From NCBI GenBank assembly GCA_027310845.1, contig DAIDAB010000004.1:1-24497 (forward strand): 24,497 nt of DNA, read 5' to 3'. Below the pieces are notes generated by a model. It ran no database searches. It saw nothing but the letters and a program-made list of their open reading frames with translations, and had not been told where the DNA came from. This stretch comes from a bacterium. Lineage in GTDB: Archaea > Thermoproteota > Nitrososphaeria > Nitrososphaerales > CADDZS01. Shown here in pieces: positions 6,197-23,438 of this stretch. Position 1 is the first letter of the stretch, and every line of letters starts with the position of its first letter. Made by a program: the position numbers and the translations under genes.

Positions 6197-7879
6197 CTAG
6201 ACGGCCGGGATCTGAGGGGCTTGCGGCTTCTTCCGATCTAGCCCGTAGGTCGCGGCCCTTTCCAAATTCAGGCCCCTCTTTCTGCAGATTGAAGAAACGA
6301 CGCGGAGCATCGCCTTTCCGCCGAGACCTATCAGAGCTCCAGTGCCGAGCTTTGAAATAATGCTGGGGTCCCTGCCGCTTCTTCCTCTAGCGAATGCGTC
6401 TCTACTTGCAAGTTTTGCTAGATGGCGGTAGGATGCATAATAGACTGCGAGTTGAGATTCATCTAGTGTTACTGATGCAAACTCCCTGTTCTTTGTGAGT
6501 CCTAGAGGTACGTTTTGCATCGGAGTGATTGTGAATTCAAATGGCCTCCCGTCGACCTCGGAGTCGCTCATTTGGTTGATCAAAGCTACTGTCTCCCAAT
6601 TATCTTCTGGAGTCTCACTTGCCTGTCCAACTTGAATAGTGAACGCTGGCCTCCAGTAGTACTTGTTCATCACATATGTACCCTGCCAGACAATCTCCTG
6701 CCACGAACCGTCAGGTCCTATCTTAAGTGGAAGAGTCTTGTTCGGCATGTGAATTCTTGCTAATCGGTCACTGCCAGTCTCGACCCCGACCTGGAGTCCT
6801 ATCCAGTTGTTTGGCCCCGCTTTGATTATTTCTGATATCCTCTTCAAAAGTTCTGGATACGCCGCAGGAATGGAAATCCTCCCATGTGTCGGGTTGGAGT
6901 GCAGGATTCCCTTTGTCTGCATCACATATGTCATGAGCTCTTCAATCGCTTCAGCGTTTGGAACGAAATTCCTCCCATGATTGAACGCGAAAATCTCATC
7001 GCTGTGAAGCCAAGCATGATTAATCCCTGCTCTAACGTTGACCTCAAGTTCCTTTCTGACTTTTTCTGGAGGATAGTATCTGAGGGGCCTGAGTGTCACC
7101 TCACAAAAATCGCATCCAATTCCACATCCTCGCATGACTTCAACCATGCCTTTGACCGTTGGATTGACAATCTCAGGAATGTCTTCCAGCTTTGGAAATT
7201 GTCTTGAGAATTGGTAGCGGGATACAAATTTCGGGTTTCCAACGAATTGCTTGTGGAAACTAGCATCGAAGGTCTGGAAGCCTCTGTAGAATTCGTTTTT
7301 CTGCGAGGAATCTTGAGTTAGATATCTGAACAAATCGCAAATGATGTCGTCTGTTTCGCCTTGAAAAGCGTAGTCGATGTTTAATGTATCCAGTTCTTCA
7401 GGCCGAATTGTGAGTTCCCACACACCAGGTCCTCCTACAACGAGCTTCGCTTTCTTCCCTGCCCTGATTCTGTTGATCTTACGCATTAAGGCATTGAACT
7501 CTTCGTGAACATAAGCAGGGGCATCGGTCTGGAAGAAGACAGAGTAGGACATTGTCAGCGGAGCCAGTCCTAGCGGGTCCATCGTTGTAACGCCGATAAG
7601 TTCGGTATCCGCATCCACGAATTCCTCGATATGGTCTTCATGCGCCACGACAATCTCATCAGAGCTATACTCTCGAAGAAGCGAGGCTTCCACTTTTCTC
7701 AGAGCATAGGGCGCAAACTTGGCTCTCCCATTTTCCTGTGGGGGTGGACGTCCTTTAAGATACTTGTAAACTCTGTTTGGAAGTCCGCTTGTAGGAGCGC
7801 TTGGCAGGAAATCGAGAAGTGGGAAATTCCGATAATCATGGGAAAGGGTAGTATCAGAGACTAGCACATACTTGGCCAT
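6197..7879 (-). CDS. Radical SAM protein with an N-terminal B12-binding-like domain; resembles archaeal GDGT ring synthase (Grs)-type lipid-modifying enzymes
   Basis: EVMRGCGIGCDFC (CxxxCxxC), VVGGPGVW, APYALRKVEA, MDPLG and GVETGS. The radical SAM call is secure. The Grs assignment is recalled family resemblance only. Confidence 0.85.
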   Translation of the reverse strand: MAKYVLVSDTTLSHDYRNFPLLDFLPSAPTSGLPNRVYKYLKGRPPPQENGRAKFAPYALRKVEASLLREYSSDEIVVAHEDHIEEFVDADTELIGVTTMDPLGLAPLTMSYSVFFQTDAPAYVHEEFNALMRKINRIRAGKKAKLVVGGPGVWELTIRPEELDTLNIDYAFQGETDDIICDLFRYLTQDSSQKNEFYRGFQTFDASFHKQFVGNPKFVSRYQFSRQFPKLEDIPEIVNPTVKGMVEVMRGCGIGCDFCEVTLRPLRYYPPEKVRKELEVNVRAGINHAWLHSDEIFAFNHGRNFVPNAEAIEELMTYVMQTKGILHSNPTHGRISIPAAYPELLKRISEIIKAGPNNWIGLQVGVETGSDRLARIHMPNKTLPLKIGPDGSWQEIVWQGTYVMNKYYWRPAFTIQVGQASETPEDNWETVALINQMSDSEVDGRPFEFTITPMQNVPLGLTKNREFASVTLDESQLAVYYASYRHLAKLASRDAFARGRSGRDPSIISKLGTGALIGLGGKAMLRVVSSICRKRGLNLERAATYGLDRKKPQAPQIPAV

Positions 7880-8752: not shown

Positions 8753-8962
8753 ATGAGTACCCTGAAACAAACGCATTCTGTTTCGAATGCCCAAGAGTCG
8801 CTGCCACTGGCTGAACAGTTTGATATCAACTTAAGGCAGAGCTGTATAGACTGCGCGTTTGTCATTAGCTGCCCGATAGCTCAAGAAAAGGGCGGCCCTG
8901 ATATCGATGTGCTAGTCGGAAGCTACAGGGTGGCGGCGTTGAAAGAGCGCTGTCTGCTCTAA
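8753..8962 (+). CDS. Small hypothetical protein with CxxC-x5-C
   Basis: ATG start, 69 aa; its stop overlaps the convergent stop of the FtsZ-like gene (8959-8962). No recognised family. Confidence 0.3.
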   Translation: MSTLKQTHSVSNAQESLPLAEQFDINLRQSCIDCAFVISCPIAQEKGGPDIDVLVGSYRVAALKERCLL

Positions 8963-9807
8963 ATACCAAATAGTATTGCCGTCATGCTAATTCGTCCGGT
9001 CTCCACTTGTGGTTGGAGTCTGGACTCAACCGCGGACCTCAGTCCCTCTCTTATTCTTATTCCCATTTTGACATTGACTCTGCGAATTAATTTCATCGCG
9101 TCTTTGTCGGTTTGAAGATCGGTTTCAGTTAGCTCGACACCTTGTTTCATCGCTATGGTTTTCGAAATTGAATAGATTTCTCGAAGCTTCACTTCTTCGG
9201 CGCACGAGAAATGAAGTAATGCAGATCGTGCAACCAAGCAGGAATCAGGAAGTCTGGAAATGATACCGGTAGGCAAATCATCAGACTCGTTGAAAGCCAA
9301 ACCAATCCCTCTAGCGATATTTTTAACATCCGCGATGTCGATGTTTAGTAGGCTTGGTACAACAAGGCTCTCGAAGAAATGAAAGATGACATTTGAAATC
9401 TCCGAGAACCAGTCATTCCTAGAAGACTCGCAGAGCACAACTGCGTCGGAGATTCTCAGATACCTCTTAGAAAAACCAAATTGAGTCTTGGGCGCAAATG
9501 CAAGCACAATTGGTCCCTCGGATCTTGGTCGGAATGAGCGCAAGAAAGAGAATTCTCTCGGCGCGCCGATAAGTCCTACCACATCAAAATCGTAGAGACG
9601 CGACGAATCCATTTTTTCTTGTTCCTGTAGAGAAGATGCCGCGAGGACCCTTATCCCGAGGGGGGAGAAGAATCTGAGAGTATCTTCAAGAGCTTTCGGA
9701 GGTGTCGTCGGCAACTTTGAGCCCAGAATAATCGCTACACGGTTGGGCCTGGTGATTAGTCGCTCTTCTGGGTCAGGGCCCTGATACATATCCGAAATCG
9801 ATTCCAT
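8959..9807 (-). CDS. Degenerate FtsZ/tubulin-fold protein (T7 loop intact, GTP-binding glycine loops lost)
   Basis: PSLLNIDIADVKNI matches FtsZ PGLMNVDFADVRTV. ARSALLHFSCAEEVKLREI matches ARGVLVNITAGFDLRLDEF. NVKMGIRI and ISMTAILFGI match TVVIGTSL and LRVTVVATGI. No GGGTGTG and no GxGGGG. Confidence 0.75.
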   Translation of the reverse strand: MESISDMYQGPDPEERLITRPNRVAIILGSKLPTTPPKALEDTLRFFSPLGIRVLAASSLQEQEKMDSSRLYDFDVVGLIGAPREFSFLRSFRPRSEGPIVLAFAPKTQFGFSKRYLRISDAVVLCESSRNDWFSEISNVIFHFFESLVVPSLLNIDIADVKNIARGIGLAFNESDDLPTGIISRLPDSCLVARSALLHFSCAEEVKLREIYSISKTIAMKQGVELTETDLQTDKDAMKLIRRVNVKMGIRIREGLRSAVESRLQPQVETGRISMTAILFGI

Positions 9808-9835
9808 CGGGCTCGCCCGCCGTGGAAAGGTAATT

Positions 9836-10081
9836 TCAATCAGCTATCCACGGAAGGGCATCTCTCCGCCTGAGCAAACCTGCCCGGCGGAACTGATTGA
9901 CCGTCCTGTGAACGAAATCAGCTATCCTCTGACGTTGCCAAACCACTAACCATGCGTCGAATGCGCCATAGGCAAAACCTGCCCATGGACCGAGCTGAGA
10001 GACACCAATCCTATATGCAAAAAGTATGCTGGCTACATCTACAAATGATGCCACAATGTTTTCTCGTGTCTCGCGAAGCAA
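9836..10081 (-). CDS. Small putative membrane protein (about two hydrophobic segments and an Arg-rich C-terminus)
   Basis: IVASFVDVASILFAYRIGV and GPWAGFAYGAFDAWLVVW followed by a basic tail. Ends 28 bp before the FtsZ-like start; a TATA-like box sits 25 nt upstream of its TTG. Confidence 0.6.
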   Translation of the reverse strand: MLRETRENIVASFVDVASILFAYRIGVSQLGPWAGFAYGAFDAWLVVWQRQRIADFVHRTVNQFRRAGLLRRRDALPWIAD

Positions 10082-10280: not shown

Positions 10281-10562
10281 ATGGAAGTGAAGATCGATAT
10301 CATGCGGGCAATCAGAGAAGGAGCAGGGAGGCCGACTCATATTATGTATCGCTCTAATCTTTCTTGGAGTGTGATGCAAAACTTCATTTATTCTATGGAG
10401 CTTCAGGGTCTTGTGATCACAAGAGATAGTGAGGGGAGAAAGGCGTATTCTCTGACCGAGAAGGGCCAGCGAGTTCTTGATACTTATCTTTCTGTCAGAA
10501 AGCAACTGGATGCACTCACTCCAATTGTGACAAGCACCTTAGCATCTGACCAAGCTCATTGA
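10281..10562 (+). CDS. Archaeal winged-helix transcriptional regulator (COG3432-like); true start possibly upstream (ACG at 10242)
   Basis: DIMRAI...PTHIMYRSNLSW...GLV...YSLTEKG. In-frame RRSR lies immediately before the ATG. Confidence 0.85.
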   Translation: MEVKIDIMRAIREGAGRPTHIMYRSNLSWSVMQNFIYSMELQGLVITRDSEGRKAYSLTEKGQRVLDTYLSVRKQLDALTPIVTSTLASDQAH

Positions 10563-13814: not shown

Positions 13815-14841
13815 TAGGTTGTAGCACAACCATGAAGGAAAGCTTTTAGCTCTCAGATTCTTGTGCGATGATATGCCTCATGGGATGTCCTGGCACGATT
13901 ACAATGAATCTTTGGTCGAGAGAGGAAGGATCATCTTCGATCTTGGATTTGCAAGCTCTTGGAAGAGTGAGCTCAAATCGATGAATAAGCACAAGGTTGG
14001 AAGACCCTTTGATTTTCCTGAATCGTACATTGAATTTCTCACATTCATGAAAGTAGGATTTGACGCTCCGTATCGGTTGATTGAAGGAGCTACTGAAGCT
14101 CTCTCCGAATACATCTCATTTATCAAGAACATTTGTTTCACCCAGATTCGGAGGAGGATGATCCGTCTCATGAAGGGAAAGAAACCAGCGGAAATTATTG
14201 GAGCGGTGAATGATGGAAAGGAGCCTGTCACAGTCGTGGTTGATTCGACCGGTCTAACTACCACGAACAGAGGCTCATACATCGAGGATAAGTGGAGGAA
14301 GGAAAAGAGAAAGTTTCTCAAATTACACATTTTAGCTGATAAAAAGACAGGCAAGATCGCAGGCTTTAGAGTCACTTCAGAGCACACGGGCGATGCGAAG
14401 AAATTCGTTCCACTCGTCAAGGAGGCATCAAAGAAGAACAAGATCTCGAAGATCTATGGAGACACATCTTACGATGCAAGGAGGAATTTCAATCTCCTAG
14501 ATGAACTGGAAATCGAACCTGCAATCAAGATACGAAAGAATGCTAGAACTCTATCAAGAGGATCTCCTCTTCGAAGGGAGGAAACTGTCCTGATGAAGAG
14601 GCTCTGTCTCGAAGGGTGGAAGAAACTCAAAGACTATGGAAAGAGGTGGATGGCTGAAATTGTGTTCTCCTCGTTCAAAAGAGTGTTAGGTGAAGCTATC
14701 AGATCTAGGAAATTTCTCTGCCAGAAGGCTGAAGCTTCACTCAAGGTCATGCTTTACAACAAGTTCATCTCCGTGTAGAAATGAAAAATCATGCCGAACT
14801 AGAAAACACGTCTCAAATGAATTGAATTAGGCCACATGCTA
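13815..14841 (+). mobile_element. IS5-family (IS903-like) insertion sequence, ~1027 bp
   Basis: Flanked by direct repeats CCTCGAACC (13806-13814 and 14842-14850). Imperfect terminal IRs TAGGTTGTAGCACAA vs TAGCATGTGGCCTAA (reverse complement of right end; 10/15 identical). Contains one intact transposase. Confidence 0.88.
13861..14778 (+). CDS. IS5-family DDE transposase
   Basis: SWHDYNESLVERG (IS903-like N-terminus), VVVDSTG (D), GDTSYD (D) and RWMAEIVFSSFKR (E); uninterrupted frame. The real start may be a downstream ATG. Confidence 0.93.
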   Translation: MCDDMPHGMSWHDYNESLVERGRIIFDLGFASSWKSELKSMNKHKVGRPFDFPESYIEFLTFMKVGFDAPYRLIEGATEALSEYISFIKNICFTQIRRRMIRLMKGKKPAEIIGAVNDGKEPVTVVVDSTGLTTTNRGSYIEDKWRKEKRKFLKLHILADKKTGKIAGFRVTSEHTGDAKKFVPLVKEASKKNKISKIYGDTSYDARRNFNLLDELEIEPAIKIRKNARTLSRGSPLRREETVLMKRLCLEGWKKLKDYGKRWMAEIVFSSFKRVLGEAIRSRKFLCQKAEASLKVMLYNKFISV

Positions 14842-16258: not shown

Positions 16259-19200
16259 TTGCAGAGAGCCCAGAGTCAATATGATGCATGGCCTGTTCTG
16301 CAGGATATCCTTACCCGTGAGGGTGTAGCAAGGCAGCATCTCAATTCGTATAACGAGTTTATTCAAAGAGGGCTTCAGAGCATCATCGACGAGATTGGCT
16401 CGATCGACATCGAGACAGTGGGTACGCCCTACAAAGTAAAGTTCGGGAAGGTTAAACTCAAGCTGCCGCGAGTGGTTGAAATCGATGGCTCCGTGAGCAA
16501 CATTCTCCCGTTGGAAGCTAGACTTCGCAACCTCACTTACGCATCTCCAATCTTTGTGGACATGACTGTAGAAGAGGATGGTATAGTCAGAGAAAACCAA
16601 GAGCAACACATAGGCGATCTGCCCGTGATGGTTAAGTCGGATCGTTGCATGCTTGCAACTATGAACGGACAGCAGCTCATAGAGGTCGGGGAAGATCCTA
16701 AGGACCCTGGAGGTTACTTTATCATCAACGGCTCTGAACGAGTCATAGTCGGGCTCGAAGACCTTTCTCCTAACAAGATTCTGGTTGATCTAGAAAGGGT
16801 TGGGGGAGTCACAAATTACAAGGCCAAAGTCTACTCCTCAATTGTGGGCTATAGAGCAAAGCTCGAGATTACGCTTAAGCAAGACGAATCAATTGTCGTG
16901 AAGCTGCCAAGCTCGCCTGTTGATTTACCACTAATCATTGTCTTGCGTGCGCTCGGCCTAGAAACTGACAAGGAAATAGCTGAAGCGGTTTCTCTGAGGC
17001 ACCGAGTTCAGGATAGGCTGGAGGTCTCGTTCGAAAAGGCAAGTGAAGCCAAGACAACAAAGGACGCTTTGATGTATATTGGAAACAGAGTTGCCCATGG
17101 AATGCTCGATGAGTTCAGGCTCAGACGAGCCGAATCAGTTCTGGACTGGGGTCTTTTGCCCCATCTCGGAAAGACCAAAGATGACAGGTACGACAAAGCG
17201 ATCTTCTTGGGTGAATCAGTGAACAAGCTCCTCGAACTTCGTTTGAATCTGCTTGAACCCGATGACAAGGATCACTATGGAAACAAAGTCATCAAATTCG
17301 CAGGTCAGATGATCGCGGACCTGTTTCGCACAGCCTTCAGAAATCTGGCACGGGATATGAAATACCAGCTCGAAAGAACTGGGCAGAGAAGAGGATTGAA
17401 TGTGGTTGGCGCAGCGATTAGGCCAGGAATCATCACTGACAAATTGAACAATGCGATCGCTACGGGTAACTGGGGGAGAGGTAAAGTCGGAGTAACACAA
17501 CTCCTGGACAGAACTAATTACCTATCAACACTTTCCCATCTTCGAAGGATCCAATCACCTCTTTCAAGGAGCCAGCCAAACTTTGAGGCAAGAGACCTCC
17601 ATGCAACGCACTTTGGGAGGATCTGCCCGAGCGAGACACCAGAGGGATCTAACTGCGGTCTCGTTAAGAACCTTGCTTTGTCTGCAGTCATTTCAGTCAG
17701 TGTCCCCTCTGCCCAAGTCGTCGCAAAACTCTATGACCTTGGAGTAAAGCCATTCAAGGAAGCTGACGAGAAACTCAAAATGGATGGATGCAGAGTTTTC
17801 GTAGAGGGAAGATTTGTAGGTTTTGTTAAGGACGGCGACACGCTTGCCAAATCATTTAGAAAATTTAGGCGCGAGGGTCAGATTCATCCACACGCTGGAA
17901 TTGCATACTTTGCCGCACGAAGCGAGGGAGCCACAGACCGAGTATACATCGCAACAAATTCAGGCAGAGTCTTGCGCCCGCTCATCTTGTGTGAAGGAGG
18001 AAGGCCACTTCTCACTCCTGAATTGATCAAAAGAGTTGAGGCGCAACAGCTCAACTGGAGAGACCTTGTTCAGATGGGGGTTATCGAGCTACTCGATGCA
18101 AACGAGGAGGAAAACACCCTCATAGCAATAGACTACAAACACCTCGGAGAGAAACATACTCATCTCGAAATGTACCCCTCTGCAATATTGGGCATTGCTG
18201 CTTCAGTCATTCCTTATCCTGAACATAATCAATCTCCGAGAAACACATACGAATCTGCCATGGCTAAGCAGTCACTTGGCTTCCCGACGCCCACTTATCC
18301 ATTCAGCACCTACGTCAGGGAGCACCTTCTCGTCTACCCACAGCCGCCACTGGTGAAGACGAGGTCAACTTCGCTTCTGAGCCTTGACGAGCGCCCGACA
18401 GGAACCAATGCCGTCGTCGCGGTATTGTCGTTCGAGGGCTACAACATTGAGGACGCAATCATCTTCAACAAATCAGCAATCGACAGAGGGCTAGCCAGGT
18501 CAATTTTCTATCGATTATACGAGGCGGAGGCGAAACAGTACCTTGGAGGTATGAAGGATACATTCGAAGTCCCCCGTCCTGATGCGAACATTAGAGGTTA
18601 TCGCGGTGAGAAGTATTACCGACTGATTGAATCTGACGGAGTCGTGATGCACGAAGCACAGGTAGCTGGAGGAGATGTCATCATCGGAAGAACTAGCCCT
18701 CCGAGATTCATGGAGGAATACAAGGAGTTCGAGGTCAAGGGCCCCTACAGGCGGGATACTTCAATCGGAGTTAGGGCGAGTGAAAGTGGAGTCGTCGACG
18801 CGGTTTTCATCACGGAAAACGAAGAAGGTGGAAAGATGTACAAAGTCCGCGTCAGGGACATGAGGATACCTGAAATCGGAGACAAGTTTGCCTCTCGACA
18901 TGGTCAGAAAGGAGTCATCGGCCTTGTCGTAAACCAAGAAGATATGCCCTACACAGAAGAAGGACTTGTTCCTGACGTTATCATCAATCCGCATGCATTT
19001 CCGTCGCGAATGACTGCGGGCCAATTCCTCGAATCTCTTGCTGGCAAGGCAGCAGCAGTCAGAGGAAGACCAGTCGACGGAACTGCATTTAGCGGCGAGA
19101 ACGCAGAATCCCTTGAAGCGGCACTTAGGGAGGGAGGATTTGCACCCACTGGGAGAGAAGTGATGTACGATGGAAGAACTGGCCGCAAGTTTGCTGCGGA

Positions 19201-19615
19201 CGTGTACATAGGCGTTGTATTCTACCAAAAGCTTCACCACATGGTCGCCGACAAGATTCACGCGCGAGCTCGTGGACAGGTGCAGATGCTCACAAAACAG
19301 CCAACGGAAGGAAGAGCGAGAGGCGGCGGTCTCAGGTTTGGAGAAATGGAGCGCGACTGCCTCATTGCTTATGGAGCTTCAATGGTCTTGAAGGACAGAC
19401 TTCTCGACGAGGCGGACAAGACGGAAGTGCATGTGTGTGAGAAATGCGGTCTGATAGCATACTACGACGCGAAGCAGAGAAAGTACGTGTGTAGAATAGA
19501 TGGTGATAGTGCGAGAATCTCAACAATAGTGATTGCGTACGCCTTCAAACTATTGTTGCAGGAAATGATGAGCCTCAACATCGCGCCCAGGCTTATGCTG
19601 AAGGACAAAGTGTGA
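16259..19615 (+). CDS. rpoB: DNA-directed RNA polymerase subunit B (Rpo2), unsplit
   Basis: GGYFIING, ETPEGSNCGLVKN, HNQSPRNTY, GDKFASRHGQKG, HAFPSRMT and GGLRFGEMERD. Confidence 0.99.
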   Translation: MQRAQSQYDAWPVLQDILTREGVARQHLNSYNEFIQRGLQSIIDEIGSIDIETVGTPYKVKFGKVKLKLPRVVEIDGSVSNILPLEARLRNLTYASPIFVDMTVEEDGIVRENQEQHIGDLPVMVKSDRCMLATMNGQQLIEVGEDPKDPGGYFIINGSERVIVGLEDLSPNKILVDLERVGGVTNYKAKVYSSIVGYRAKLEITLKQDESIVVKLPSSPVDLPLIIVLRALGLETDKEIAEAVSLRHRVQDRLEVSFEKASEAKTTKDALMYIGNRVAHGMLDEFRLRRAESVLDWGLLPHLGKTKDDRYDKAIFLGESVNKLLELRLNLLEPDDKDHYGNKVIKFAGQMIADLFRTAFRNLARDMKYQLERTGQRRGLNVVGAAIRPGIITDKLNNAIATGNWGRGKVGVTQLLDRTNYLSTLSHLRRIQSPLSRSQPNFEARDLHATHFGRICPSETPEGSNCGLVKNLALSAVISVSVPSAQVVAKLYDLGVKPFKEADEKLKMDGCRVFVEGRFVGFVKDGDTLAKSFRKFRREGQIHPHAGIAYFAARSEGATDRVYIATNSGRVLRPLILCEGGRPLLTPELIKRVEAQQLNWRDLVQMGVIELLDANEEENTLIAIDYKHLGEKHTHLEMYPSAILGIAASVIPYPEHNQSPRNTYESAMAKQSLGFPTPTYPFSTYVREHLLVYPQPPLVKTRSTSLLSLDERPTGTNAVVAVLSFEGYNIEDAIIFNKSAIDRGLARSIFYRLYEAEAKQYLGGMKDTFEVPRPDANIRGYRGEKYYRLIESDGVVMHEAQVAGGDVIIGRTSPPRFMEEYKEFEVKGPYRRDTSIGVRASESGVVDAVFITENEEGGKMYKVRVRDMRIPEIGDKFASRHGQKGVIGLVVNQEDMPYTEEGLVPDVIINPHAFPSRMTAGQFLESLAGKAAAVRGRPVDGTAFSGENAESLEAALREGGFAPTGREVMYDGRTGRKFAADVYIGVVFYQKLHHMVADKIHARARGQVQMLTKQPTEGRARGGGLRFGEMERDCLIAYGASMVLKDRLLDEADKTEVHVCEKCGLIAYYDAKQRKYVCRIDGDSARISTIVIAYAFKLLLQEMMSLNIAPRLMLKDKV

Positions 19616-19646: not shown

Positions 19647-22600
19647 ATGTCGATTGAAGAGTCTATCAAATCTGTCGGTGGAATAAGGTTCGCCCTCAGC
19701 TCTCCGAGTGAGATAAGGAAATACAGCGTCGCTGAAATTACAGCTCCTGAGACGTACGACGAGGACGGGATGCCAGTACAGGGAGGATTAATGGACAACA
19801 GGCTGGGGACGCTTGAACCGGGGCAGAAATGCGCGAGTTGTGGAAACACAGCTCCTAAATGTCCAGGACACTTTGGACATATTGAACTCGCAGAACCAGT
19901 AATCCACATCGCCTTCGTGGATGACATCCATAAGCTACTCATCTCGACTTGCCGGGCTTGCGGACGTCTACTCCTTTCCCAAGATGATATTGCGGAATAC
20001 AAGAAGAGGCTTGATGAAAGGTCTTCTGCCTCACCCATGCTGATTGAAATTATCTCTCGCGAGATACTGAACAAAGTCAAGAAGGCCAAAGAATGCTTTT
20101 TCTGTGGAAGGGGGCAATACGAGATCGAATTCACCAAACCGACCGTATTCCACGAAATCACAGAAAGCGGCGGGGCGACAAGACTCTTGCCCGTTGCTAT
20201 AAGAGAACGGCTTGAAAGAATCACAAATGACGACCTAAGACTGCTTGGGTACGACCCATCAAGCGCGAGGCCTGAGTGGCTAGTGCTTCAGGTTTTACCT
20301 GTTCCTCCAGTCGCGGTCAGGCCATCGATAACACTCGAATCGGGAATCAGATCAGAAGACGACCTCACTCATAAGATTGTCGACATTCTCCGTGTGAACC
20401 AGAGGGTAAGAGAGAGCAAAGAATCTGGAACTCCTCCGTTGATCGTGCAAGATTTAGTAGACTTACTACAGTACCATGTTACGACTTACTTTGATAATGA
20501 AGTATCAGGCATTCCTCAGGCTCATCACAGATCGGGGCGTCCACTCAAGACAATCAGCCAGAGGCTCAAGGGAAAAGAAGGGCGATTCAGGGGTAGTCTC
20601 TCTGGAAAGAGAGTTGATTTCTCAAGTCGAACCGTCATTTCTCCAGACCCCTCGCTCGACATTTCCGAAGTCGGCGTTCCATATGAGGTCGCAAGAAAAC
20701 TCACTATCCCGGAAAAGGCTTCTCCTTGGAATCTTGAATTCCTGAAGAAACTCATACTCAACGGACCCTTCAAACATCCGGGAGCGAACTACATAATCAG
20801 GCCAGACGGCATCAAGATCAGACTGGACTATGTAACTGACCTCCAGATGCACGCGGATTCACTTGCTCCAGGATTCATAGTCGAACGTCACCTAACCGAC
20901 GGAGACATTGTGATCTTCAATAGACAACCGTCCTTGCACAGAATGTCTGTAATGGCACACTACGTGAAAGTGCTTCCTTACAGGACATTCAGATTGCATC
21001 CTGCCGTGTGCCCTCCATACAACTCTGATTTTGATGGGGATGAAATGAACCTTCATGTGCCACAGAGCGAGGAAGCAAGGTCAGAGGCTCTCACATTGAT
21101 GCGGGTCCAAGATCAGATACTTTCCCCGAGATACGGCGGACCGATCATTGGCGGGATCAGGGATTTTCTCACCGCTGCATACCTTCTGACAAAAGAAGGA
21201 ACCTACATCACAAAGGATGAGTTCACCAGCTTGGCGCTCGCTGGAGGAATGACAGCGGATCAGGAATTGCCAAAGCCGGAAAAGAGTGAACCTGAACCAC
21301 TCTATACAGGAAGACAACTATTCTCGCTCTTCCTGCCCAAGGATTTCAACTACGTTCTGATCTCAAAGTGGGAAAAGAGCTCACGAGGTGCCACGAAAGA
21401 TGTCGTGATCAAGAATGGACAGCTCCTTAGTGGAGTAATTGACCGTGCTGCAATTGGTGCTGAGGAGTCAGACTCTATACTCCACAGAATCGCAAAGGAC
21501 TACGGAACGGAAGAAGCGAGGCGATTCCTAAACTCAATATTGAGGCTGCTCAAGGGTTTCATCACAAGATCTGGCTTTAGCTACGGATACGACGAGCTTG
21601 AGCTTCCAGAAGATGTGAGGAATAAGATCTCCGAGACTTTGGACGAATCATATTCCAAGGTGAAGGATCTCAACGAACAGTACAGGAAGGGTGCGTTGCC
21701 AGAGACCAGAGGACTCTCGCCGGAGAGTGCACTCGAGTTCTATGTGGCGAACGAGCTTTCAAGGGCAAGAGAAAAGGCAGGAAGGATTGCCGACAAATCA
21801 TTCTCAATACAGAATGCGGGAATCATCATGGCCAGAACCGGAGCAAGGGGCTCTACGCTGAACCTTGGTCAGATGACAGCTGCCCTAGGTCAGCAGTCGG
21901 TCAGGGGAAAGAGGATCGAGAAAGGATACCAGAACAGGGCCTTGCCTCACTTTGCACCTCATGACCCAAGCCCAGATGCTAGAGGTTTCGTCCGGTCAAA
22001 TTACAGGGATGGACTTAACGCGATAGAATTTTTCTTTCACGCGATGGGAGGGAGAGAGGGCCTCGTCGACACCGCGGTAAGGACTCAGCAGAGCGGATAT
22101 ATGCAAAGACGACTGGTCAACGCTCTTGAACATCTCAAGGTCGAGTACGACTTGACCGTCAGAGATCCAAACGGCAACATCATCCAGTTCAAGTACGGGG
22201 AGGATGGAATTGATCCCGCGAAGAGCGACCATGGACTCGCAGTCAACTTAGAGCGGCTTGTCGACACCATGGCGCTTTCGGCTGACGTCTCGAGGCCTGC
22301 AGCTGAATCAACAATCGAGAAGACGGTTGAAAAATACTCTGAATCCCTAAATCCAAGACTCAAGGCTGACTTGCTTGGCACACTCAAGGATTCCAAGCTT
22401 GATCCAAAATCTGTGGAGAAGGTATGCGAGCGAGTCGTCGAGCTTGTGAAGAAGAGTACCGTTGAGCCTGGAGAGGCGTCAGGAATCGTGGCTGCCCAGT
22501 CAATCGGCGAGCCCGGAACACAAATGACGCTCAGGACATTCCACTTCGCAGGGGTCAAGGAACGCGACGTCACACTGGGACTACCCCGACTCATAGAGCT

Positions 22601-23438
22601 CGTCGATGCGAGGAAACTACCAGCCACTCCCTCGATGGATGTATTCTTGGATGAGGAGACACCCAAGTCAAATGAGAAAGCAATACGCGTTGCAAACCAG
22701 ATTAGATTCACAAAAGTAGGGAACCTGATTGATTCTGCTGAAGTTGAGCCAGCCGGAGGAATCATGCTCTATCTAAGCAAGGCAAAAATGGCAGAAAGGC
22801 AATGCACCATCAAAGACATTCAGGAGGCTATCGAATCTCCAAAGAGAGTGATTGAGGTTGACGAAAAGCGAAATATTATTACGATCAAGATTGACGTTGA
22901 CTTTGCCTCTCTCCATGTCCACAAGAATAAGATCCTGAACCAAAGAGTAAAAGGCATACCAGGTATTGACCGTGTTACCGTGGTAAAGGAAGGAGATGAA
23001 TGGAAGATCCAAACATCGGGTTCAAACCTCCAGAAGGTCAGGGCGATTGAAGGCGTCGACAAGACACGGACCACAACCAACAACGCCTTTGAAATCTATC
23101 AGACGCTTGGAATCGAGGCAGCGCGGCAGGCGCTAGTCAAGGAAATAATGGGAACTCTCGAGGAGCAGGGACTAGAGGTTGACATCAGGCACATCTATCT
23201 CGTTGCGGATCTCATGACAAGCAAAGGGTTCCTTCAGCAGATAGGGAGGCACGGAGTCGCGGGTACAAAGACAAGCGTTCTTGCTAGAGCTGCATTTGAA
23301 ATCACAGTGCCCACGTTGGCTGAGGCAGCTGTGAGAGGAGAAACAGAGGATCTAAAGGGTGTCACTGAAAACGTCATCGTCGGTCTTCCTATACCGGTGG
23401 GAACTGGAATGATTGACGTCTTTATGCGCGGTGTCTAG
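19647..23438 (+). CDS. rpoA: DNA-directed RNA polymerase largest subunit, fused A'/A'' (Rpo1)
   Basis: CPGHFGHIEL, GKRVDFSSR, NRQPSLH, NSDFDGDEMN, GLVDTAVRT (bridge helix), GEPGTQMTLRTFH (trigger loop) and LARAAFE in one 1263-aa ORF. Confidence 0.99.
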   Translation: MSIEESIKSVGGIRFALSSPSEIRKYSVAEITAPETYDEDGMPVQGGLMDNRLGTLEPGQKCASCGNTAPKCPGHFGHIELAEPVIHIAFVDDIHKLLISTCRACGRLLLSQDDIAEYKKRLDERSSASPMLIEIISREILNKVKKAKECFFCGRGQYEIEFTKPTVFHEITESGGATRLLPVAIRERLERITNDDLRLLGYDPSSARPEWLVLQVLPVPPVAVRPSITLESGIRSEDDLTHKIVDILRVNQRVRESKESGTPPLIVQDLVDLLQYHVTTYFDNEVSGIPQAHHRSGRPLKTISQRLKGKEGRFRGSLSGKRVDFSSRTVISPDPSLDISEVGVPYEVARKLTIPEKASPWNLEFLKKLILNGPFKHPGANYIIRPDGIKIRLDYVTDLQMHADSLAPGFIVERHLTDGDIVIFNRQPSLHRMSVMAHYVKVLPYRTFRLHPAVCPPYNSDFDGDEMNLHVPQSEEARSEALTLMRVQDQILSPRYGGPIIGGIRDFLTAAYLLTKEGTYITKDEFTSLALAGGMTADQELPKPEKSEPEPLYTGRQLFSLFLPKDFNYVLISKWEKSSRGATKDVVIKNGQLLSGVIDRAAIGAEESDSILHRIAKDYGTEEARRFLNSILRLLKGFITRSGFSYGYDELELPEDVRNKISETLDESYSKVKDLNEQYRKGALPETRGLSPESALEFYVANELSRAREKAGRIADKSFSIQNAGIIMARTGARGSTLNLGQMTAALGQQSVRGKRIEKGYQNRALPHFAPHDPSPDARGFVRSNYRDGLNAIEFFFHAMGGREGLVDTAVRTQQSGYMQRRLVNALEHLKVEYDLTVRDPNGNIIQFKYGEDGIDPAKSDHGLAVNLERLVDTMALSADVSRPAAESTIEKTVEKYSESLNPRLKADLLGTLKDSKLDPKSVEKVCERVVELVKKSTVEPGEASGIVAAQSIGEPGTQMTLRTFHFAGVKERDVTLGLPRLIELVDARKLPATPSMDVFLDEETPKSNEKAIRVANQIRFTKVGNLIDSAEVEPAGGIMLYLSKAKMAERQCTIKDIQEAIESPKRVIEVDEKRNIITIKIDVDFASLHVHKNKILNQRVKGIPGIDRVTVVKEGDEWKIQTSGSNLQKVRAIEGVDKTRTTTNNAFEIYQTLGIEAARQALVKEIMGTLEEQGLEVDIRHIYLVADLMTSKGFLQQIGRHGVAGTKTSVLARAAFEITVPTLAEAAVRGETEDLKGVTENVIVGLPIPVGTGMIDVFMRGV

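Follow-up and report, generated by a model that had tools for sequence, protein, structure and literature searches.

We describe here a divergent, lineage-specific paralogue of FtsZ, referred to below as pseudo-FtsZ, that is encoded in a window of 24,497 nucleotides (the whole stretch of DNA analysed; positions 1 to 24,497 of contig DAIDAB010000004.1, GenBank assembly GCA_027310845.1). The DNA was recovered from a mine-drainage metagenome, and the source is a metagenome-assembled genome (MAG), 67% complete, of the archaeal order Nitrososphaerales. In FtsZ filaments, the T7 loop of one subunit triggers GTP hydrolysis in the neighbouring subunit. Pseudo-FtsZ keeps this loop under strong constraint, and its nucleotide-binding top face is dismantled; its existence, its fold and this motif pattern are well supported. 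We propose that pseudo-FtsZ may donate its T7 loop to FtsZ and terminate the chain, acting as a cap, a sequestering factor or a GTPase-activating protein (GAP), a reading to which we assign a probability of roughly 45%.

Pseudo-FtsZ has an FtsZ fold

The gene and the FtsZ elements recognized in its product, each with the evidence used to place it, are as follows.

8959..9807, minus strand: pseudo-FtsZ coding sequence, 282 amino acids (aa) plus stop codon (open reading frame (ORF) call, homologues, FtsZ fold)
9412..9753, minus strand: reduced N-terminal domain, residues 19-132 (AlphaFold2 secondary structure, hhalign gaps, conservation)
9712..9741, minus strand: remnant of strand S1 and loop T1, residues 23-32, RVAIILGSKL (conservation, model, structural alignment)
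9559..9585, minus strand: remnant of strand S4 and loop T4, residues 75-83, DVVGLIGAP replacing GGGTGTG (local and global hhalign)
9313..9408, minus strand: helix H7, T7 loop and helix H8, residues 134-165 (conservation, hhalign core)
9325..9357, minus strand: T7 synergy loop, PSLLNIDIADV, residues 151-161 (conservation; lies in the predicted FtsZ interface)
8962..9312, minus strand: C-terminal FtsZ_C-like domain, residues 166-282, strands S7-S10 (model, structural alignment)

No Pfam family, PF00091 included, matched pseudo-FtsZ, and the NCBIfam ftsZ model TIGR00065 reached 12.5 bits over residues 143-258, below its cut-off of 295.2. A word-indexed protein search returned 69 family proteins (the window's own included), nearly all of them unnamed or annotated as 'hypothetical', with the named homologues coming from 'Nitrososphaerales archaeon' MAGs. 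An exhaustive phmmer search of 1.8 billion cluster representatives recovered 31 clusters, all belonging to the pseudo-FtsZ family, and not a single FtsZ. Weak matches to PF12327 (FtsZ_C) were found in 4 of the 45 homologues that make up our family alignment.

Comparison of this 45-sequence alignment with one of 22 canonical FtsZ proteins of the same order yielded an hhalign probability of 94% (E 1.3e-7), with residues 100-213 of pseudo-FtsZ lying on FtsZ 151-295. The core of the match is H7-T7-H8, where the block ESLVVPSLLNIDIADV of pseudo-FtsZ is aligned with ETITTASLINIDFADL of canonical FtsZ. When the same alignment was compared with that of a T7-less FtsZ-like family (described further below), the hhalign probability was 0.5%, that is, no relationship. 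Over the whole protein, pseudo-FtsZ is 13-16% identical to solved FtsZ structures; in the T7-H8 stretch, its identity to the FtsZ of the same genome is ~42% by our own count.

An AlphaFold2 model built on the 45-sequence alignment had a mean predicted local distance difference test score (pLDDT) of 79.6 and a predicted template modelling score (pTM) of 0.79. Foldseek found 140 matches to this model in the PDB at E <= 0.001 (best E 1e-10, probability 1.0), and VIA-align superimposed it on Mycobacterium tuberculosis FtsZ with a Z of 19.6 (224 residues at 3.0 Å), pairing model residues 19-282 with chain residues 6-312 and covering both FtsZ domains. Among the matches listed (50 PDB entries in Foldseek and 50 in VIA-align), all are FtsZ, which leaves CetZ, tubulin or TubZ unsupported as a closer relative. 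The AlphaFold DB clusters and the ESM Atlas returned FtsZ-like entries, several of them unnamed, and no other fold. An earlier reading of the sequence alone (hereafter the original prediction) had proposed an FtsZ fold with an intact T7 loop and lost GTP-binding loops; the fold is borne out by Foldseek, VIA-align and hhalign alike.

The nucleotide-binding face is dismantled and the T7 face is conserved

The N-terminal domain of the model contains five strands (24-28, 53-56, 76-80, 100-106 and 122-126), compared to six in FtsZ. Because S2 and S4 are separated by only 19 residues, as opposed to ~53 in FtsZ, strand S3 and the T3 region must have been deleted. Similarly, FtsZ ~186-200 (T6 to H6) has no counterpart in pseudo-FtsZ according to the hhalign gaps, helix H6 being deleted. 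These outright losses of T3 with S3 and of H6 go beyond what the original prediction had noticed.

The glycines of the remaining nucleotide-binding loops are lost as well. At T1, ILGSKLPT of pseudo-FtsZ stands opposite GVGGAGCN of FtsZ, so that the GGxG loop is reduced to G29-S30, in agreement with the original prediction that the T1 GGGG loop is absent. Since global hhalign is unreliable upstream of S4, S1 and T1 were placed from the range of the structural alignment, in which model residue 19 lies on residue 6 of M. tuberculosis FtsZ. At T4, the profile alignment sets GLIGAPR opposite GLGGGTGTG, and global hhalign puts DVVGLIGAPR on S4 and T4; in place of the signature GGGTG[ST]G, the aligned segment reads G-L-I-G-A-P-R (family consensus GLIGE). 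The earlier description of T4 as reduced to DVVGLIGAP therefore holds, and of its approximate span, 9553-9585, the end is right and the start moves to 9559. In the hhalign register, IVLAFAPK corresponds to S5/T5 and ISDAVVLC to S6. A different register, obtained with HMMER against PDB FtsZ and placing VGLIGAP on S5/T5, conflicts with both hhalign and the secondary structure of the model and is probably wrong.

The opposite, bottom face of pseudo-FtsZ is strongly constrained, the T7 loop above all. The 45-sequence alignment contains 23 invariant and 24 nearly invariant columns. Among the invariant residues are S147, P151, S152, G169 and all three residues of the T7 NxDxxD motif (N155, D157 and D160), and most of the others lie in the C-terminal strands. 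F104 and C126 are the sole invariant columns of the N-terminal domain, with D75 and G81 nearly invariant. The mean frequency of the top residue is 0.84 for residues 150-165, 0.62-0.63 for H7 and the C-terminal domain, and 0.52 for the N-terminal domain, the lowest value of any folded part. The T7 loop had been predicted to be intact at 9325-9357; these coordinates are exact, and the conservation of its acidic residues, which had been singled out as a check, is complete across the homologues. The C-terminal strands, expected to align with FtsZ up to the final FGI, do so, with the structural alignment reaching residue 282. Pseudo-FtsZ ends two residues past S10 and has no C-terminal linker or tail.

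Pseudo-FtsZ is confined to one family that also encodes canonical FtsZ

In a sample of 401 genomes evenly drawn from the order, true pseudo-FtsZ matches are confined to a single GTDB family, where they occur in 10 of the 12 genomes (4/4, 1/1 and 5/7 in its three genera) in addition to the source genome. Matches at E~1e-6 in other families are those genomes' own FtsZ or FtsZ-sized frames. The named pseudo-FtsZ records include 'Thaumarchaeota archaeon SubAcS9-71', a MAG assigned by Sheridan et al. 2023 to the 'heterotrophic terrestrial Thaumarchaeota' with a GC content of 46-48% (PMC10640624); that of the window is ~47%. The family bearing pseudo-FtsZ thus probably corresponds to this non-nitrifying group.

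A search for the canonical ftsZ in the source genome, as the original prediction had suggested, was successful: the protein, encoded at L003:1456-2517, has 353 aa, scores 344.5 bits on TIGR00065 and contains both GGGTGTG and NIDFAD. The same genome encodes SepF (112 aa, 48.8 bits) and a weak candidate for an ESCRT-III-like (CdvB-like) protein. FtsZ matches are present in all 12 sampled genomes of the family, being canonical in 11, and several genomes carry two or three canonical copies. Across the order, canonical FtsZ above the TIGR00065 cut-off was found in 57 of the 401 genomes, distributed over several families; the large, mostly closed-genome families of the order have weak FtsZ-like matches only (E around 1e-13). 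Since canonical FtsZ and SepF are both encoded, an FtsZ-based machinery is plausibly in use in the pseudo-FtsZ lineage. The context given originally, of a phylum in which Cdv/ESCRT rather than FtsZ has been linked to division, needs adjusting for this lineage to include canonical FtsZ and SepF.

A predicted complex and a possible mechanism

The heterodimer called for in the original prediction was modelled from canonical FtsZ (residues 25-340), GTP and pseudo-FtsZ (residues 17-282) in three runs with three controls. Against 0.00 in all three controls, the interface score ipSAE was 0.59, 0.58 and 0.45 (final score 0.58), a result graded as 'weak support'. In the calibration set, 58 of the 80 solved complexes and 2 of the 110 mismatched pairs passed the mark; scores of 0.60 or less came from only 7 of those solved complexes and from both passing mismatches. 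The predicted interface is the canonical longitudinal contact, with the T7 face of pseudo-FtsZ on the GTP face of FtsZ, as had been proposed. On the FtsZ side, it comprises T2 (65-68), T3 (87-93), T4 (126-127), T5 (155-161) and H6/H7 (188-200), and on the pseudo-FtsZ side residues 18-22, D75, T7 (151-160), H8, 198-219 and 245-252. Positions conserved at >=90% account for 15 of 33 interface positions, compared to 47 of 266 overall (hypergeometric P 6e-5). The T3 and H6 deleted from pseudo-FtsZ belong to those FtsZ elements that receive T7 in this interface (87-93 and 188-200), so pseudo-FtsZ could donate a T7 loop yet not receive one.

If pseudo-FtsZ is a T7 donor of this kind, it could neither bind GTP nor take another subunit on its top face, and it would dock with its own T7 face on the GTP-carrying top of an ordinary FtsZ subunit, most likely one of the canonical FtsZ of the same genome. 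Once docked, it would complete the active site, trigger hydrolysis and end the filament. As summarized in a modelling preprint (bioRxiv 10.1101/2020.02.25.965095), treadmilling filaments gain subunits at their bottom end and lose them at the top. With this polarity, pseudo-FtsZ would probably either cap the top end or sequester free monomers and deplete them of GTP. Sitting on the shrinking, nucleotide-exposing end of a filament, pseudo-FtsZ would be a top-end cap; alternatively, it might act on free GTP-FtsZ monomers, stimulating hydrolysis and, by occupying their top face, blocking their addition to filaments. The blocking of elongation at a filament end that the original prediction considered possible has to be revised in view of the reported polarity, which would place a T7-face binder at the end that shrinks, or on monomers with bound GTP, and not at the growing end. 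By either route, pseudo-FtsZ would regulate the Z-ring negatively or by promoting its turnover, and, having no C-terminal tail, it should not be tethered by SepF. Such a T7-donating capper or GAP would constitute a genetically encoded regulator of Z-ring turnover in archaea that possess FtsZ, SepF and a weak CdvB-like candidate.

Several points weigh against this proposal. The loss of GTP binding is read from motifs. The co-occurrence with FtsZ is uninformative, as every genome of the family has FtsZ and there are also FtsZ-bearing families without pseudo-FtsZ. The gene neighbourhood (radical SAM, winged helix, CoxG-like and Nudix genes) is devoid of division genes. Furthermore, the score of 0.58 falls in a band in which a predicted contact is wrong more often than right unless it was likely to begin with, and it may reflect recall of solved FtsZ-FtsZ filaments. 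Finally, some of the conserved interface residues are core residues, and the enrichment test is therefore not clean.

Gene neighbourhood and alternative readings

Pseudo-FtsZ is embedded in a gene order that is conserved in three genera: Nudix, CoxG-like and winged-helix (HTH_45) genes, then divergently the 81-aa ORF (not in every locus) and pseudo-FtsZ, followed by a convergent 69-aa ORF (likewise not in every locus) and a radical-SAM gene. The neighbours annotated in the window are listed below.

9836..10081, minus strand: small ORF of 81 aa, encoding two hydrophobic helices and a basic tail and located 28 nt before the pseudo-FtsZ start (ORF list, synteny)
10281..10562, plus strand: winged-helix HTH_45 protein, divergent from the 81-aa ORF and pseudo-FtsZ (PF14947, 56 bits; syntenic in 10/12 loci)
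8753-8962, plus strand: convergent 69-aa ORF overlapping the pseudo-FtsZ stop codon by 4 nt (C-x2-C...C stretch)
6197-7879, minus strand: radical-SAM protein of 560 aa, downstream of pseudo-FtsZ (69-77% identical in seven further loci)

The winged-helix protein may be a local regulator. The 69-aa ORF is 56-72% identical in three other loci (L005, L007 and L009) and has no Pfam match. The 81-aa ORF was considered as a universal obligate partner or anchor of pseudo-FtsZ and rejected in this role: it occurs in 5 of the syntenic loci, and of the 10 loci that include the upstream stretch, 5 yielded no copy. A second copy of pseudo-FtsZ (282 aa, 66% identical) resides in the same genome on the 2.1-kb contig C158 (L005:448-1296, minus strand), flanked by the same genes (69-aa ORF, 81-aa ORF and winged helix) at 72-80% identity; it stems either from a related strain binned together with this genome or from a segmental duplication. 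Another genome, G044, has two copies as well. Elsewhere in the window, a DDE transposase (PF01609) at 13861-14778 on the plus strand marks an insertion sequence element, and two adjacent, very large ORFs at 16259-19615 (1118 aa) and 19647-23438 (1263 aa), also on the plus strand, occupy a region of strong positive AT skew.

Foremost among the alternatives, with perhaps one chance in five, is that pseudo-FtsZ serves as a nucleotide-free scaffold or adaptor unrelated to FtsZ ends, its T7-H8 segment being kept for folding or for some other partner, such as the membrane protein encoded upstream. The position of the two-helix 81-aa ORF on the same strand is in keeping with this, as are the neighbourhood without division genes and two short RNA-library contigs that cover 9767-9940 and connect the 81-aa ORF with pseudo-FtsZ; because DNA may be present in such libraries, they are weak evidence for transcription across the junction. 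However, the upstream ORF occurs in only about half of the loci with this gene order, and the invariant residues are the catalytic N/D/D of T7, which have no known structural role demanding invariance. Likewise, a purely structural use sits uneasily with a T7-H8 segment that is so much closer to canonical FtsZ than is the rest of the protein.

Somewhat less probable is that the partner of pseudo-FtsZ is another FtsZ relative of the source genome, the two pairing into a heterodimer that would not polymerise and would have a single composite GTPase site, much as alpha- and beta-tubulin divide their tasks.

contig C183, L004:1261-2319, minus strand: T7-less FtsZ-like paralogue, 352 aa (motif inspection)

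The family of this protein keeps T1 (GSAG), T4 (GGxVGSG), T5 (PFNFE) and T6 (DN) and has GLNNVVxFVKT in place of T7, which makes the two defects complementary: the pocket of pseudo-FtsZ is dead and its T7 is present, and the C183 protein has retained the pocket without T7. Each of the two proteins occurs in 10 of the 12 family genomes, and homologues of both were found on 739,446-base contigs, probably one and the same. Nevertheless, the FtsZ-like family is distributed far more widely, with orthologues (34-42% identity) in at least 10 other families of the order that lack pseudo-FtsZ, and the T7-H8 block of pseudo-FtsZ resembles that of canonical FtsZ rather than having co-evolved with the divergent pocket. 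A broader and slightly less likely version of this idea, which we regard as speculative, holds that two paralogues, each half inactivated, split the longitudinal faces of FtsZ between them, either capping opposite ends of canonical filaments or forming an obligate heterodimer with a composite GTPase site; if true, prokaryotes would have a counterpart of the asymmetry seen in alpha/beta-tubulin.

Self-assembly of pseudo-FtsZ into nucleotide-independent filaments, for which only the shared fold of a polymer-forming superfamily speaks, is improbable, as the top-face elements that receive T7 (T3 and the H6-H7 loop) are deleted and the surface of the N-terminal domain is poorly conserved. Least credible of all is a decaying, non-functional FtsZ duplicate, the very low identity to FtsZ and the lost catalytic pocket notwithstanding, given the intact, stop-free frames of all 13 family matches from three genera, the invariant columns, the conserved synteny and the confident AlphaFold2 model.

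Comparison with known systems

Compared to canonical FtsZ (TIGR00065; PF00091 and PF12327), pseudo-FtsZ shares the two-domain fold, the H7-T7-H8 segment with NxDxxD and strands S7-S10 of the C-terminal domain. It differs in having a core that is ~45-60 residues shorter, in the loss of the T1 and T4 glycines and of T3, S3 and H6, and in the lack of the C-terminal tail. Nmar_1262, a thaumarchaeal FtsZ-like protein that has no T7 loop and fails to polymerise in yeast (PMC3684127), is likewise a degenerate FtsZ paralogue of the same phylum. However, proteins of the Nmar_1262 and C183 type retain a T4-like motif (AGKAGSA or GGxVGSG) and have lost T7, whereas pseudo-FtsZ presents the reverse. Among the FtsZ relatives of Thaumarchaeota, canonical FtsZ and the T7-less FtsZ-like type are joined by pseudo-FtsZ as a third. 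In bacteria, ESM Atlas clusters of FtsZ-like proteins of 242-272 aa from Bacillota, Fusobacteriota and Bacteroidota, compared here by size and shape, lack the Tubulin Pfam domain and have template modelling scores of 0.64-0.67 normalized by the query; FtsZ may have been reduced independently in these proteins.

Our literature search turned up the T7-less thaumarchaeal FtsZ-like protein, ARC3, CetZ and artubulins, and no family in which T7 is kept and the pocket lost, which accords with the original prediction, made without a search, that knew of no such family. As far as this search went, natural FtsZ-fold proteins with one polymerisation face are undescribed in prokaryotes, and the nearest case is ARC3 of plants. 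ARC3, too, is not known to have the tubulin signature motif. It has an FtsZ-like domain and inhibits Z-ring assembly, and it is reported to enhance the GTPase activity of FtsZ2 (PMC12232670 and its reference 49). ARC3 is the nearest functional precedent for an FtsZ-derived protein acting on FtsZ, the likeness being functional only. The two are set apart by their domain make-up, ARC3 being a eukaryotic, plastid-targeted protein with additional middle and MORN domains and pseudo-FtsZ having no extra domain according to Pfam.

The proposed logic, in which a protein with a single functional longitudinal face binds a filament end or a monomer and stops assembly from going on, is shared with the engineered 'capper' mutants of FtsZ and with MciZ and SulA (PDB 4u39 and 1ofu are among the VIA-align structural matches). 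MciZ and SulA bind the bottom (T7) face of FtsZ, whereas pseudo-FtsZ would bind the top face. Moreover, these cappers are point mutants or unrelated small proteins, whereas pseudo-FtsZ is a natural, conserved paralogue with the FtsZ fold. If it indeed donates T7 as proposed, pseudo-FtsZ would be the natural counterpart of the engineered interface mutants that have been used for studying the polarity of FtsZ filaments.

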